Below are positions 6,171 to 9,630 of a stretch of DNA of 13,250 nucleotides, piece after piece. Under the pieces are notes generated by a model. That model was not told the DNA's origin. It saw nothing but the letters and a program-made list of their open reading frames with translations, and did no database searches. Location of the stretch: the UHGV virus genome UHGV-0070257. One strand, given 5' to 3'. This DNA is from a virus. The first letter of the stretch is position 1. The number at the start of each line of letters is the position of its first letter. The position numbers and the translations under genes are program-made.

Positions 6171-6881
6171 ATGCGTCAGAAAATTATCGACGCCATTATG
6201 GCGCATGCCGCTTCTGAATATCCCCGCGAATGCTGCGGCGTAGTGGTGCAAAAAAGCAGGGTGCAGCGGTACATTCCTTGCCGTAATCTGGCAACCGATC
6301 CGACAGAGCATTTCCACCTGTCGCCGGAAGATTATGCCGCTGCCGAAGACTGGGGAACAGTGATTGCCATTGTCCACAGTCACCCGGACGCAACGACACA
6401 GCCGAGCGAACTGGATAAGGCACAGTGTGACGCTACGTTACTTCCGTGGCATATCCTCAGCTGGCCGGAGGGGGATCTGCGTACCATTCAGCCGCGGGGC
6501 GAGTTGCCGCTACTTGAGCGCCCATTTGTGCTCGGTCATTTCGATTGCTGGGGGCTGGTGATGAGCTATTTCCGGCAAACGCATGGCATTGAGCTGACGG
6601 ATTACCGCGTGGATTATCCCTGGTGGGAAGACAGTTATCCCGAAAACTTCTACCACGATTGCTGGTATGAATGCGGATTCCGTGAATTCAGTGGCGTACC
6701 GCAGCCAGGTGATATGGTTATCATGCAGGTCCAGGCCAATAAGTGGAATCACGCGGGAATTCTACTGGAAGGTAACATGCTGTTGCATCACCTGTATGGG
6801 CACCTCAGCCAACGTGTGCCATACGGCGGCTACTGGCAAGAAAGAACAATGAAGGTACTTCGCTATAAGACTCTAGCTTAA
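6171..6881 (+). CDS. K: tail assembly protein, lambda K-like (236 aa) with JAB/MPN metalloprotease and NlpC/P60 motifs
   Basis: RBS AGGAG; start overlaps the L stop (TGATATG). JAMM-type motif E...HSHPDATTQPSELD and Cys/His pair (DCWGL ... HAGILL) seen in the translation. About 37 aa longer than lambda gpK (199 aa). Confidence 0.88.
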   Translation: MRQKIIDAIMAHAASEYPRECCGVVVQKSRVQRYIPCRNLATDPTEHFHLSPEDYAAAEDWGTVIAIVHSHPDATTQPSELDKAQCDATLLPWHILSWPEGDLRTIQPRGELPLLERPFVLGHFDCWGLVMSYFRQTHGIELTDYRVDYPWWEDSYPENFYHDCWYECGFREFSGVPQPGDMVIMQVQANKWNHAGILLEGNMLLHHLYGHLSQRVPYGGYWQERTMKVLRYKTLA

Positions 6882-6887
6882 GCCCAT

Positions 6888-7331
6888 TTAGGTGGACTGT
6901 TCCCCTGGAATTTCCACCCCAAAACCATCCGCATCCCAAGTCTTTTCCCAGACTTCGTAACCTAACTCTTTTAGGCGACTAAAAGTTTTTTTGAAAACAG
7001 TGTTGAAATCATCGTCACTAAGTCCGTCCAACTCAAGATCGCTGAGATGAATATGGAATGTGGAATGACCAATCCGTACCTTTTTGTTGATCTCTGAAAA
7101 AGTCCTTTTGAATATTATTTCAGAGAGTTCATCCCTCGCTTTTTCAACAAGTTGAATTGCATCTTGAGCAGAAATTACTTCATCTTCACGTAATTCGCTA
7201 AGGAAGCTGTTGTCGAGACGTTGAACTATTTCAGCATTCATAGAGCGGTTATTGGATTTTGCTGCATCTTCAATTTTTTCTTTTAATTCAATTGGTAATC
7301 TTATTCTTAGTTGAGGATCTTCTCTGCTCAT
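6888..7331 (-). CDS. Arc/Mnt-family ribbon-helix-helix DNA-binding protein with about 100 aa acidic C-terminal extension of unknown function (147 aa)
   Basis: N-terminus PQLRIRLPIELKEKIEDAAKSNNRSMNAEIVQRLDNSF fits the Arc/Mnt RHH pattern (beta strand with alternating residues, then N-[SA]-E-I-[VY]-Q-R helix), by pattern recognition only. RBS GAGG 7 nt upstream of the ATG on the minus strand. Convergent with K, 6 bp apart. Confidence 0.75.
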   Translation of the reverse strand: MSREDPQLRIRLPIELKEKIEDAAKSNNRSMNAEIVQRLDNSFLSELREDEVISAQDAIQLVEKARDELSEIIFKRTFSEINKKVRIGHSTFHIHLSDLELDGLSDDDFNTVFKKTFSRLKELGYEVWEKTWDADGFGVEIPGEQST

Positions 7332-7366
7332 TTGGTTGCCTCACTCAAAAAGTTCACATTATGTAA

Positions 7367-7440
7367 ATTATGCCCCACGGTGGGGTTGACATCAATGACG
7401 CACGGTGTGACACTTTATGTGTCCCACCGTGGGGCATAAT
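7367..7440. promoter_or_regulatory. divergent promoter/operator region: two inverted copies of ATTATG-CCCCAC(G/C)GTGGGG, overlapping back-to-back promoters
   Basis: Arm 1 (7367-7385, attatgccccacggtgggg) and arm 2 (7422-7440, tcccaccgtggggcataat) are reverse complements at 18/19 positions, and each core is itself near-palindromic. Leftward promoter: -35 TTGATG (minus strand of 7390-7395), 17-nt spacer containing box 1, -10 CATAAT (minus strand of 7367-7372). Rightward promoter: consensus -35 TTGACA 7386-7391, 17-nt spacer, extended -10 TGtGACACT 7406-7414, which would place box 2 at the transcript start. Confidence 0.6.
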
Positions 7441-7450
7441 TGGAGGGGTT

Positions 7451-7618
7451 ATGGAAAAAGCTAAAGATATGTACCAGCGTAAGGTTCGATTTCCTGAAGA
7501 TGTCCGGTTGGCGATAGAGAGAAATGGGGAAGATGAGTGCCGTCAGTTCAATACTGAGCTCATCTATCAGTTGAGGAAAGCGTACGGATTAGAAGGGGGG
7601 AAGAGTGAACAAGCATAA
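7451..7618 (+). CDS. small Arc-like ribbon-helix-helix repressor (55 aa)
   Basis: SD GGAGGGG 7442-7448 then ATG 7451. Translation MEKAKDMYQRKVRFPEDVRLAIERNGEDECRQFNTELIYQLRKAYGLEGGKSEQA is comparable in size and pattern to P22 Arc (53 aa; RWP...NSEIYQR). The track start at 7370 would place the operator boxes inside the ORF and is rejected. Confidence 0.65.
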   Translation: MEKAKDMYQRKVRFPEDVRLAIERNGEDECRQFNTELIYQLRKAYGLEGGKSEQA

Positions 7619-7625
7619 AAACAGT

Positions 7626-7660
7626 GAAACCCAGGAGTGCGCGAACACCCTGGGTTTCTT
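7626..7660. terminator. perfect 10-bp stem-loop (GAAACCCAGG - 13 nt loop - CCTGGGTTTC) with U-rich flanks on both strands; candidate bidirectional terminator/attenuator
   Basis: Read directly: 7626-7635 is the exact reverse complement of 7649-7658. It is followed by TT on the + strand and by ACTGTTTTTAT on the - strand. It lies between the Arc-like gene stop (7618) and the first ATG of the next gene (7692). Confidence 0.45.
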
Positions 7661-7691
7661 ATCGAAGAAATCCTTGGCAGGAAATATCGAC

Positions 7692-8273
7692 ATGAACAGT
7701 GTAACGAAAGAAGAGCTGAACTTCCATGGCATTTCTCTGCAGCCGGCTCCTGATATCGATGGCATCTGGCTGACCGCTAATCAGATTGGTTACGCGCTTC
7801 AATATGCAGACGATAAAGCTGTTCAGCGAATTTTTGCTCGTCATATTGATGAGTTTACAGAAAAAATGACAAGGGTGGTCAAGTTGACCACCCCTGGTGG
7901 GCATCAGGAAACTAGGGTTTTTTCTCTACGTGGCGCACACATGGTCGCTATGTTTGCCAGAACTCCGGTTGCTAAAGAATTCCGACACTGGGTGTTAGAC
8001 ATTCTGGACCGTGAGGTATCTATTAACTTTCCAGTACCGAAGATGCTCAGCGATCGAGAAGTCCACGCCCACAATGCAAACGCAATGTTCGATTATTTCG
8101 AGATTATGTGTGAAGCATGGTTTAACCAGATAGAGCCAGCGTTGAGGGCGATTGAGTCTCCGCTCGCAGGCCGTCTTCACGATCGTTTCAATGATGGGGC
8201 CGCGTTTATGTACATGATTAAGACTCATGCTGAACTACAGCTTCAGGAAGGAGAAAGGCCAAGAATCTACTGA
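7692..8273 (+). CDS. antirepressor-like protein with Bro-N/AntA-type N-terminal domain (193 aa from ATG 7692; alternative GTG start 7605 gives 222 aa)
   Basis: Segment NFHGISLQPAPDIDGIWLTANQIGYALQYADDKAVQRIFARHIDE...PGGHQETRVFSLRGAHMVAMFARTPVAKEFRHWVLDIL fits the phage antirepressor N-terminal domain pattern (F.F...GE.W..A..I...L... ending F..WV). Family call is pattern-based, not searched. Start is ambiguous: GTG 7605 has a G-rich SD but puts the 10-bp hairpin inside the ORF. Confidence 0.6.
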   Translation: MNSVTKEELNFHGISLQPAPDIDGIWLTANQIGYALQYADDKAVQRIFARHIDEFTEKMTRVVKLTTPGGHQETRVFSLRGAHMVAMFARTPVAKEFRHWVLDILDREVSINFPVPKMLSDREVHAHNANAMFDYFEIMCEAWFNQIEPALRAIESPLAGRLHDRFNDGAAFMYMIKTHAELQLQEGERPRIY

Positions 8274-8296
8274 ATTTGCAATGCTGCAAATAGAAA

Positions 8297-8320
8297 AGCC
8301 GATAGTTAGGGCTATCGGCT
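8297..8320. repeat. perfect 9-bp inverted repeat AGCCGATAG-TTAGGG-CTATCGGCT between the two antirepressor-like genes
   Basis: Read directly. No T-tract follows, so it is more likely a protein-binding palindrome or RNA processing/stability hairpin than an intrinsic terminator. Confidence 0.4.
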
Positions 8321-8350
8321 ATCCATAAATCTGTCATAAGGGTCCAACCA

Positions 8351-9094
8351 ATGACTTCATTAAATTTAGCAGTAAATAGCGCTAATGTCACCGAGAAAAC
8401 CATTGATAGCCAGTACTTGCTGGAGATGGTGAATGCTGCGCGAAAGCAATGCGGTGAGCCGGCTGTCCGAAATAACAAGTTCATTGAGAAGGTTGTTGAT
8501 GAGCTTGAAGGGGAGACCTACACAAAAAGTGTAGGTCGTAAAAATGGTCAAGACATTGAAGTAATTACAATGTCTATCAAGCAAGCCCTCCGAGTAGCCG
8601 CTCGTGAATCGAAAGCCGTTCGACGTTCTCTGGTTGATAAGCTGGAAGATATGCAGGTATTACCAGCGATGCCAAAAAGCAACACAGGTATCACTGAGTA
8701 CCGATTGGCTAAGGCAGAACAGTTGAAAGCCCAGGCATTGGAGAAGAATATCGCGAGCGCGCGGGAAATCATTACTCTGCTTCCTAGATTGGATCCGATG
8801 GCACATCAGGTGCTCACGGCATCGTTGATTAATCCGCTTATTGGTTATGACGCCATCCCGTTACCTGTTATCGAGGAGCATTACCACACTGCGAGTGAGG
8901 TGGGGGAGATGCTGGGGGTTTCTGCTCAGAAAATTGGACGCGTTGCTAACACACACAAGCTGAAGACAGAAGCGCATGGCAAGTTCTTTCTGGACAAGTC
9001 GGCCTACTCAAGTAAACAGGTTGAAGCGTTCCGGTACAACACTAACGGAATTGATGCGTTGCGCCATCTGATTCATGGTGCTGATGTGGCATAA
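8351..9094 (+). CDS. phage antirepressor/regulatory protein, Rha-like N-terminal region and KilAC-like C-terminal domain (247 aa)
   Basis: RBS AAGGG. N-terminal TIDSQYLLEMVNAARKQCGEPAVRNNKFIEKVVDEL resembles the Rha-family pattern. C-terminal HYHTASEVGEMLGVSAQKIGRVANTHKLKTEAHGKFFLDKSAYSSKQVEAFRYNTNGIDAL resembles the Ant/KilAC C-terminal domain. Pattern-based assignment. Confidence 0.6.
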   Translation: MTSLNLAVNSANVTEKTIDSQYLLEMVNAARKQCGEPAVRNNKFIEKVVDELEGETYTKSVGRKNGQDIEVITMSIKQALRVAARESKAVRRSLVDKLEDMQVLPAMPKSNTGITEYRLAKAEQLKAQALEKNIASAREIITLLPRLDPMAHQVLTASLINPLIGYDAIPLPVIEEHYHTASEVGEMLGVSAQKIGRVANTHKLKTEAHGKFFLDKSAYSSKQVEAFRYNTNGIDALRHLIHGADVA

Positions 9095-9127
9095 ATTTCA
9101 AAGCAGTTAAAATGTTTTTGCTATCCC

Positions 9128-9155
9128 AACCCGCTTAACTGCGGGTTTTGTCGTT
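9128..9155 (+). terminator. intrinsic terminator candidate (AACCCGC-TTAACT-GCGGGTT then TTGTCGTT)
   Basis: 7-bp stem and 6-nt loop followed by a T-rich run, 34 nt after the stop of the 8351..9094 gene. Confidence 0.5.
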
Positions 9156-9204
9156 ACCGGATCCCTGCTACTCTTTTGGCAAATTAATCAAAGGTGATAG
9201 GGAT

Positions 9205-9630
9205 ATGAAAAAGACTTTGCTGCTTCTAATTGCGCTTAGCGTTGCTGGGTGTTCAACCACGGCGGTGAATTCTACCGTTGCAAAACAAGTACCATCTGAA
9301 CGTGTATTGCTGAAGGGGGCTGGTGACTCGGTGATAACAATTACACGAGATCAAGGATGGTTTGCTGGTGGTGGATGCTTTGTAGAAGTAACTATTGATG
9401 GAAAATCCTATGCAAGAATTGATACGGGAGAAACGATCGATATCAATGTTACATCCGGCCGACATATTCTAGGAATATCTGGCGATTCAAAAGGTAAAGG
9501 ATTATGTGGAATGCAGGTCGGACAACCACTCAAAGAGACTGCCACGCAGATCAATGCTCGTGAACATCAAAAATTCCGCATCACCGGAGATACTAATTCC
9601 GGACTTGATATCAGAGCATCAACCATATAG
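9205..9630 (+). CDS. predicted outer-membrane lipoprotein (141 aa precursor), function unknown; candidate superinfection-exclusion or host-interaction moron
   Basis: ATG 9205 with SD AGGTGA upstream. Signal peptide MKKTLLLLIALSVAGC with lipobox L-S-V-A-G-C and Ser at +2 (no Lol-avoidance Asp). Two further Cys in the mature part. The track start 9148 is a TTG upstream of the signal peptide and is rejected. Confidence 0.75.
   Translation: MKKTLLLLIALSVAGCSTTAVNSTVAKQVPSERVLLKGAGDSVITITRDQGWFAGGGCFVEVTIDGKSYARIDTGETIDINVTSGRHILGISGDSKGKGLCGMQVGQPLKETATQINAREHQKFRITGDTNSGLDIRASTI

Follow-up and report, generated by a model that had tools for sequence, protein, structure and literature searches.

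A probable P22 immI-type anti-repressor cassette in a lambda/N15-like tail module, with three putative iterated Mnt-type operators in predicted back-to-back promoters

The immI region of phage P22 has been studied since the 1980s, and in the work of Sauer and Susskind its Mnt protein reportedly represses only Pant, the promoter of the anti-repressor gene ant. A locus of this kind is present in the virus genome UHGV-0070257, of which a stretch of 13,250 bp, referred to here as the window, was analysed. Within the window, the segment 7367-7441 is likely to be the control region of a P22 immI-type anti-repressor cassette, in which two back-to-back sigma-70 promoters and three iterated Mnt-type operators are predicted. 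In P22 lysogens ant is kept silent by Mnt, and both promoters are shut down by Arc (PMC2724298). Both proteins are repressors of the ribbon-helix-helix (RHH) type. The equivalent insert in P22-like phages, which lies in the late operon and is expressed independently, has been named the ant moron (PMC2629481). As a type the system is therefore already known, both from P22 immI and from the ant morons described in that study.

In the annotated P22 record, Pant occupies 14793-14821 and Pmnt runs from 14826 to 14798, while the operators of Arc and Mnt span 14798-14818 and 14822-14844, respectively. Pant consists of the -35 TTGACA, the spacer TGATAGAAGCACTCTAC, the -10 TATATT and the gap CTCAAT, followed by the operator AGGTCCACGGTGGACCT. 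The predicted rightward promoter of the window consists of TTGACA, the spacer TCAATGACGCACGGTGT, the -10 GACACT and the gap TTATGT, followed by the operator GTCCCACCGTGGGGCAT. Both therefore run TTGACA, 17 nt, -10 and 6 nt into an operator with a CCAC-N-GTGG core, whose centre lies at +43 from the start of the -35 in P22 and at +42 in the window. Because the spacing is identical and the core is shared, this operator, termed box 3, is the apparent positional and sequence homologue of the P22 Mnt operator. The resemblance extends to the gene order, with divergent genes of Mnt and Arc type, an anti-repressor gene after the Arc-type gene, and a candidate sar-type antisense RNA at the arc-ant junction. 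The cassette also resembles that of P22 in being a moron located within a late operon of structural genes (PMC2629481).

Several features differentiate the two systems. P22 has a single Mnt operator and an unrelated 21-bp Arc operator with TAGA half-sites, whereas the window has three boxes of Mnt type. No TAGA-type symmetric site is present in the rightward spacer of the window, where the third Mnt-type box (box 2) is found instead. Box 2 overlaps the place of the P22 Arc operator, Oarc, with its symmetry centre 3 bp away, while box 1 has no P22 counterpart. Overlap of the two promoters is complete in P22, where the -10 of one lies over the -35 of the other and the predicted starts are ~37 bp apart. 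In the window they are back-to-back, with only the -35 hexamers overlapping and predicted starts (~7360 leftward, ~7421 rightward) ~61 bp apart. The Mnt-like protein of the window carries ~60 C-terminal residues more than P22 Mnt, the anti-repressor is of Bro-N type and not detectably similar to P22 Ant, and the phage itself is a lambda/N15-like siphovirus rather than a P22-like podovirus.

The control region of the window reads ...AAATTATGCCCCACGGTGGGGTTGACATCAATGACGCACGGTGTGACACTTTATGTGTCCCACCGTGGGGCATAATTGGAGGGGTTATG... and its three boxes form a direct-repeat family with spacings of 25 and 24 nt, namely TGCCCCACGGTGGGG (7371-7385), TGACGCACGGTGTGA (7396-7410), and TGTCCCACCGTGGGG (7420-7434). 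They are centred at 7379 (CCCCACgGTGGGG), 7404 (CGCACgGTGTG), and 7428 (CCCACcGTGGG), and no further copies of the box were found elsewhere in the window. An earlier note on this DNA described two paired operator boxes with near-palindromic cores. The outer two boxes are indeed present, but a third related box at 7397-7411 had been overlooked. The cores also differ in quality, as box 1 is a perfect 13-bp palindrome and box 3 pairs at only 5/6 positions.

The outer boxes lie within an inverted repeat with arms at 7366-7384 (AATTATGCCCCACGGTGGG) and 7423-7441 (CCCACCGTGGGGCATAATT), which are complementary at 19/19 positions in the best register found by a repeat finder and are separated by 38 nt. 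The arms given earlier, 7367-7385 and 7422-7440 with 18/19 matches, are the same repeat shifted by one base. The whole window was scanned for inverted repeats with loops of up to 60 nt, using thresholds of 19 nt with up to one mismatch and 12 nt perfect. This repeat was the only one of at least 12 perfect nucleotides with a loop of at most 60 nt, and 20 random windows generated with a first-order Markov model contained none at either threshold. Being unique in the window and absent from randomised sequence, the inverted repeat is real and not a product of chance.

Comparison with close relatives was used to define which part of this sequence is conserved. A scan of viral contigs with the 147-residue Mnt-like protein gave 80 loci at 54-100% identity over the matched part. 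Fifty distinct intergenic sequences were aligned, and the box tallies cover 48 relatives. The Mnt-like proteins of the 50 distinct relatives are 63-100% identical where the whole protein aligns. Little or no variation is seen at 7367-7415, a span that takes in boxes 1 and 2, the -10 of the leftward promoter, the extended -10 of the rightward one and both -35 hexamers. Variation is found at synonymous sites, in the 7415-7422 segment and in the leader adjoining the start codon of the mnt-like gene. Box 1 reads CCCCACGGTGGGG in 42/48 relatives and the remaining six differ at the centre base alone, which is G, C or T across the relatives, as expected for a palindromic operator with an uncontacted centre. 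Box 2 is identical in 43/48. Box 3 occurs in 13 variants, usually with one perfect half (GTGGGG) and one degenerate half (CCTCAC, TCTCAC). The spacing between boxes 1 and 2 is 25 bp in all but one of the 48, and that between boxes 2 and 3 ranges from 24 to 27 bp.

The inverted repeat does not share this conservation. Pairing at 19/19 positions is kept by just 4/50 distinct relatives, in 40/50 the centre base of box 1 does not complement that of box 3, and the right-arm flank CATAAT is lineage-specific. The 19-bp arms described in the earlier note are therefore not the functional unit. As the extended arms are not conserved, the conserved unit is the 13-bp palindromic box and not the 19-nt inverted repeat.

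These data also bear on whether the repeat could act as RNA. Late tail-operon transcripts might fold it into a hairpin that affects processing, stability or read-through to the downstream tail genes. Plus-strand RNA of 7355-7450 does fold strongly (-43.4 kcal/mol, z -4.4 versus shuffles), the cassette sits inside the late tail operon, and the P22 ant moron has been proposed to affect late-transcription read-through into the tailspike gene (PMC2629481). However, the long-range pairing is not conserved in the relatives, with the flank pairs mostly retained at 3-4 of 7 positions in addition to the mismatches at the centres. Conservation instead falls on each self-palindromic box and on a third box that a hairpin does not explain. 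Transcripts from the rightward promoter would begin past the left arm and therefore could not form the hairpin. Despite the strong fold, the hairpin was rejected as the main function of the inverted repeat, and a role of this kind is very improbable.

The boxes are arranged around two divergent predicted promoters. A consensus scan recovers the leftward promoter as TTGATG (7395 to 7390), 17 nt, and CATAAT (7372 to 7367), with 9/12 consensus matches and with box 1 occupying its spacer as claimed previously. The rightward promoter was not called by the scan because its -10, GACACT (7409-7414), matches at just 3/6 positions. Its -35 matches the consensus at 6/6 positions, its spacer is 17 nt and a TG is present at 7406-7407. 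The -35 and the extended -10 were both found by reading the sequence where the earlier note had placed them, and the overlap it reported between the -35 hexamers amounts to 2 bp (7390-7391). The overall layout, with boxes at the spacer and start-site positions of two divergent predicted promoters, is supported by the comparison. In distant relatives a -10-like hexamer (TCTACT, TTTACT, TACTAT) is retained at the same 17-nt spacing. As the -35 hexamers overlap, the RNA polymerase footprints of the two predicted promoters (~-55 to +20) would exclude each other.

A small hypervariable patch, 7415-7422, coincides with the predicted start of the rightward transcript and separates the rightward -10 from box 3. 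In otherwise identical cassettes, including loci L161-L164 (2880-3000, reverse complement), it reads TTTATGTG, TTTAAGTG, TTTGAGTA, TTTAAATG, and TTTAAATA.

Taken with homology to P22, the layout suggests how the control region may work. The leftward promoter would drive the Mnt-like repressor and the rightward promoter the Arc-like gene together with the anti-repressor genes. The Mnt-like protein is predicted to read the CCCAC-N-GTGGG boxes via its N-terminal β-ribbon, whose reading segment (M1-S2-R3-E4-D5-P6-Q7, R9, R11, P13) is invariant in 30 homologues. Given its homology to P22 Mnt, the protein probably forms tetramers, and each half-site would then be contacted by one dimer, making two dimers per box. 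Occupancy of box 3 at the start site and box 2 in the spacer would block the arc-ant promoter, so that the anti-repressors remain silent in the lysogen. Occupancy of box 1, which lies in the spacer of the repressor's own promoter and touches the rightward -35, would result in negative autoregulation and add to rightward repression. With boxes 2 and 3 plus the abutting box 1, the ant promoter would therefore be under more operators than the promoter from which the repressor itself is expressed. The rightward transcript would encode the Arc-like protein, which probably acts at the same boxes or shows a preference for the deviant box 2, and may thereby provide feedback shut-off as P22 Arc does. 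A sar-like antisense RNA could add translational control, limiting ant translation. The sequence anatomy, the homologies, the conservation, and the recurrence of the layout are shown by the data, whereas which protein occupies which box, how the affinities rank, where transcription begins, and how the repressor oligomerises are inferred.

Shared binding of the boxes is suggested by the DNA-reading residues, which are almost the same in the Arc-like (Q-x-K-x-R) and Mnt-like (Q-x-R-x-R) proteins. Several points nonetheless weigh against the mechanism outlined above. P22 Arc (Q-N-R) and Mnt (H-N-R) have similar reading residues yet quite different operators, and similar heads are therefore no proof of shared boxes. 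At positions +/-4 to +/-7, box 2 departs systematically from the other two boxes, and it could be a site for the Arc-like protein alone. The strongest site looks to be box 1, in which case the repressor's own promoter would be shut at least as readily as that of ant, which is awkward unless boxes 2 and 3 act together, and the spacing of 24 to 27 bp between these two argues against rigid cooperative contacts. Finally, both promoters are consensus predictions, and the rightward -10 is a poor match.

The main rival explanation is a division of labour like that of P22 in which the Mnt-like protein binds boxes 1 and 3 only and box 2 is the private operator of the Arc-like protein. The location of box 2 over that of P22 Oarc would fit this arrangement, as would its consistent departure from the outer boxes (GACGCAC/GTGTGAC versus CCCCAC/GTGGGG) in a sequence that is itself nearly invariant, and the difference in the middle reading residue, which is R in the Mnt-like and K in the Arc-like protein. 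However, the extended -10 TGtGACACT also constrains the right half of box 2 and could alone explain the deviation. In rare variants the left half of box 2 shifts towards that of the outer boxes (GCCCCAC, GCCTCAC) while the Arc-like head stays the same. Within the family, no clear correlation was found between box 2 variants and Arc-like head variants. In one relative, L031, box 3 adopts the box-2-type half-site (GTCACAC-C-GTGTGAC), and the 3-bp offset between the symmetry centres of box 2 and P22 Oarc also counts against equivalence. A private Arc operator is accordingly possible but rather unlikely.

More distant cassettes were gathered by scans with two short Mnt-like proteins. Iterated palindromic boxes occur at equivalent places in at least nine other families (L064, L065, L087, L129, L089, L144, L154, L157, and L150). 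Measured from the start of the -35, their centres lie shortly before the -35 at -7 to -8.5 (-17 in L144), in the spacer at +15 to +19, and close to the start site at +37 to +46. The box sequence itself is family-specific, being AACCA-N3-TGGTT in L065, ACCTA-N-TAGGT in L087 and L129, CCCCA-N3-TGGGG in L154 and L157, and ACACGATGTAG in L144. It shifts together with the β-strand residues of the repressor across families, which is what co-evolution of operator and repressor predicts. The reading residues of the Mnt-like/Arc-like pair are Q-K-R/Q-K-R in L065, L087, and L129, P-G-R/P-G-R in L144, T-K-R/Y-K-R in L154 and L157, and Q-R-R/Q-K-R in the window. Half-site position -5 appears, from few examples, to track the middle residue, with R accompanying C:G (window), K accompanying A (L064 boxes 1 and 3, L065), and N accompanying T or A (P22, L143).

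Most of these loci have a divergent RHH pair with the same or nearly the same reading residues. Where the heads are clearly different (P22, L147, L158), a second kind of element is visible in the intergenic region. This association of differing heads with a second element type is suggestive, although the sample is small, and it is in line with the division of labour described above. Conversely, L150 has no Arc-like gene and its Bro-N anti-repressor follows directly, yet the spacer and start-site boxes are still there. All box positions can thus be explained by the Mnt-like protein on its own, and the retained spacer box counts against a private Arc operator.

The retention of this layout in Arc-less cassettes also speaks against a two-repressor toggle of the type seen at lambda OR, in which both RHH proteins would act on all three operators with opposite affinity orders, each shutting the promoter of the other first, to give bistability. 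Three iterated operators between divergent promoters do recall OR, and the reading residues of the two proteins are nearly the same in the window and identical in L065, L087, L129, and L144. The P22 homologue works otherwise, however, as P22 Arc represses both promoters (PMC2724298). The P22 paradigm is not a mutual-repression toggle, and both the cross-regulation and the bistable switch proposed in the earlier note are unsupported. A toggle is considered improbable.

A broader alternative is that P22 immI is atypical and that RHH-controlled anti-repressor cassettes are commonly built on a tripartite operator of single specificity (box 1/-35/box 2/-10/box 3), shared by two RHH paralogues with the same reading head and different oligomerisation domains. 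The extra C-terminal domain of the long-form protein would act as a signal-sensing module, allowing non-SOS induction of the prophage via the anti-repressors. This is a speculative proposal and is regarded as doubtful. If true, the region would be an RHH analogue of lambda OR.

The similarity to lambda OR, where OR1-OR3 lie between PR and PRM and are bound by CI and Cro, is one of architecture. Both regions have three iterated, partly palindromic operators of one sequence family and two divergent promoters, and the regulators encoded on either side plausibly share sites in the window as well. The lambda proteins are helix-turn-helix and those of the window RHH, with no homology between them. 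Furthermore, OR is the primary lysis-lysogeny switch whereas the cassette belongs to a secondary, anti-repressor immunity circuit. CopG of pMV158, MetJ with its met-boxes, and AmrZ are similar in that a β-ribbon reads short inverted repeats and repression is achieved through occupancy of the -35/-10 region (PMC2724298). Each of these systems, however, has a single repressor on a single promoter or operon, with neither divergent paralogous RHH genes nor anti-repressor cargo. PDB entry 9pio was set aside, as it is Arc used as a ClpXP substrate.

The features of the control region and the cassette are listed in Table 1.

Table 1. Coordinates of the putative operators, predicted promoter elements, and genes of the cassette in the window
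Feature	Position	Strand	Basis and remarks
Mnt-like long-form RHH repressor gene, 147 residues	6888-7331	-	Pfam Arc 53 bits; P22 Mnt homology
A/T-rich near-palindrome TTCACAT-T-ATGTAAA	7353-7367		Coincides with predicted leftward start and with UP-element position for rightward promoter
Leftward (mnt-like) -10 CATAAT, predicted	7367-7372	-	Consensus scan; ATTATG nearly invariant in 50 relatives
Box 1 (O1) CCCCACgGTGGGG / CCCCACGGTGGGG	7373-7385		Perfect 13-bp palindrome; fills leftward-promoter spacer and abuts rightward -35
Rightward (arc-ant) -35 TTGACA, predicted	7386-7391	+	Read from sequence, 6/6; little or no variation in relatives; hexamer shared with P22 Pant
Leftward -35 TTGATG, predicted	7390-7395	-	Consensus scan; CAA at 7393-7395 invariant in relatives
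Box 2 (O2) GACGCACGGTGTGAC / GACGCACgGTGTGAC	7397-7411		Imperfect palindrome in 17-nt rightward-promoter spacer; member of direct-repeat family
Rightward extended -10 TGtGACACT, predicted	7406-7414	+	Read from sequence; invariant in relatives, GACAAT in E. coli variant
Variable segment with predicted rightward start (~7421)	7415-7421	+	Differs among otherwise identical cassettes
Box 3 (O3) TCCCACCGTGGGG / TCCCACcGTGGGG	7422-7434		Palindromic at 5/6 pairs; ~+1 to +13 of predicted rightward transcript
Arc-like RHH gene, 55 residues	7451-7618	+	Shine-Dalgarno GGAGG at 7443-7447
sar-like antisense RNA, putative	7623-7690	-	Rfam RF00262; across arc-ant junction and ant ribosome-binding site
Anti-repressor gene (regulated cargo), putative	7683-8273	+	Pfam Bro-N 36.8 bits; weak P22_AR_C; PHROG anti-repressor Ant E 4e-32
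Second anti-repressor-like gene, putative	8351-9094	+	PHROG 1726 anti-repressor E 9e-77

A tail module of lambda/N15 type makes up the window, with ~77% identity to N15 genes 11-21. Nothing in N15 corresponds to the segment from 6888 to ~9630, which sits between a K-like gene (6171-6881), which in identical relatives has Prok-JAB and NLPC_P60 domains, and the I-like and J-like genes. As its gene set of Mnt-like RHH, Arc-like RHH, putative sar-like RNA, and anti-repressors matches that of immI, this segment is, by homology, a P22 immI-type ant moron in a lambda/N15-like tail module, an identity that the earlier note had not recognised.

The two RHH genes flanking the control region had been recognised from the sequence previously, and this was confirmed by database comparison. 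The Mnt-like protein scores well above the 20.4-bit cut-off of Pfam Arc (PF03869) and is 30% identical to P22 Mnt over 86 residues (BLASTP, E 3e-12). Its AlphaFold2 model (predicted local distance difference test score 74.6) consists of an RHH domain (1-45), a long helix (55-87) homologous to the P22 Mnt tetramerisation helix, and a small α/β domain (91-140). Neither P22 Mnt nor the short Mnt-like proteins of L064 and L065 possess the C-terminal α/β domain (residues 88-147, window 6888-7067), which is conserved across Enterobacterales. No relative of this domain, by fold or by sequence, was detected in the PDB, and it matches the stand-alone PHROGs 31943 and 5321, both of unknown function. By sequence, the closest solved structures are AmrZ and Arc/Mnt. 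The 55-residue protein aligns to P22 Arc without gaps from Met1 (BLASTP, E 1e-5) and matches the Arc-like repressor PHROG, while its Pfam Arc score of 18.9 bits falls just under the cut-off.

The sar-like RNA, read from 7690 to 7623, scores 31.2 bits (E 0.001) against RF00262, short of the gathering score (43). In L011, a relative sharing this control region, the sar match at the syntenic position reaches 59.4 bits and so exceeds that score. The candidate RNA of the window has a terminator hairpin (7626-7658) and a candidate -10, TACACT (7703 to 7698), located 6 nt from the start as in P22 Psar. Rfam gave only a spurious sub-threshold miRNA match on the operator region. The products of 7683-8273 and 8351-9094 are putative anti-repressors based on profile matches. 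The first, of Bro-N type, shows no detectable similarity to P22 Ant by BLASTP, and the second, which has no Pfam match, is probably encoded in the same operon as the Arc-like and Bro-N genes. Two minus-strand hairpins resembling intrinsic terminators lie antisense to the ant genes, one with a 12-bp stem inside the first ant gene (7870-7896) and one between the two (8297-8320). A small lipoprotein open reading frame (9205-9630, MKKTLLLLIALSVAGC...) just before the I-like tail gene could be a moron of the superinfection-exclusion type.

The A/T-rich element at 7353-7367 forms a 5/6 palindrome around 7360. Relatives preserve the sequence (70-90% conservation) but not the palindrome, and the element may represent a promoter-proximal one or an additional, fourth binding site. 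A LexA box was ruled out by eye, as there is no CTG...CAG.

The cassette is widely distributed. The exact 147-residue protein occurs in 177 blocks of the assembly collection, including chromosomal contigs of >1 Mb, and its homologues across Enterobacterales are labelled just "Arc family DNA-binding protein". Near-identity DNA searches of phage, E. coli, and plasmid collections with the cassette gave only partial matches, 73-87% identical, none of which carries a functional annotation beyond that label. The insertion site varies: in an E. coli prophage it lies between tail genes L and K, in the window it follows the K-like gene, and on Klebsiella records it is inside a baseplate gene cluster. 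The same control region and RHH pair are observed at these differing sites with differing anti-repressor cargo depending on the phage type (L002 3733-5391, L003 2752-4940, window 6888-9630). These comparisons suggest that the cassette behaves as a mobile, mosaic moron. An apparently decayed copy is seen in L051 (upstream of 1501), where boxes 1 and 2 are kept, the -35 is mutated (TTGGCT), and box 3 and the arc-like gene are lost.

The literature was searched for this cassette type and for a three-operator variant of immI, and only descriptions of the P22/epsilon34 type were found. The searched literature gave no account of three iterated Mnt-type operators in back-to-back promoters, of such a layout recurring across many families, of a long-form Mnt with an extra domain, or of the cassette being located in siphovirus tail clusters.

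That RHH repressors keep an ant operon off is biology that a specialist would expect. Nonetheless, anti-repressor cassettes let one prophage induce or cross-talk with others, and their control regions therefore decide when a lysogen is destabilised. A cassette widespread in Enterobacterales would have a three-operator layout unlike that of P22, the single example studied. The recurrence of this layout with family-specific boxes offers a ready comparative set for the recognition code between RHH proteins and DNA, along with compact, portable, and probably orthogonal pairs of repressor and operator.

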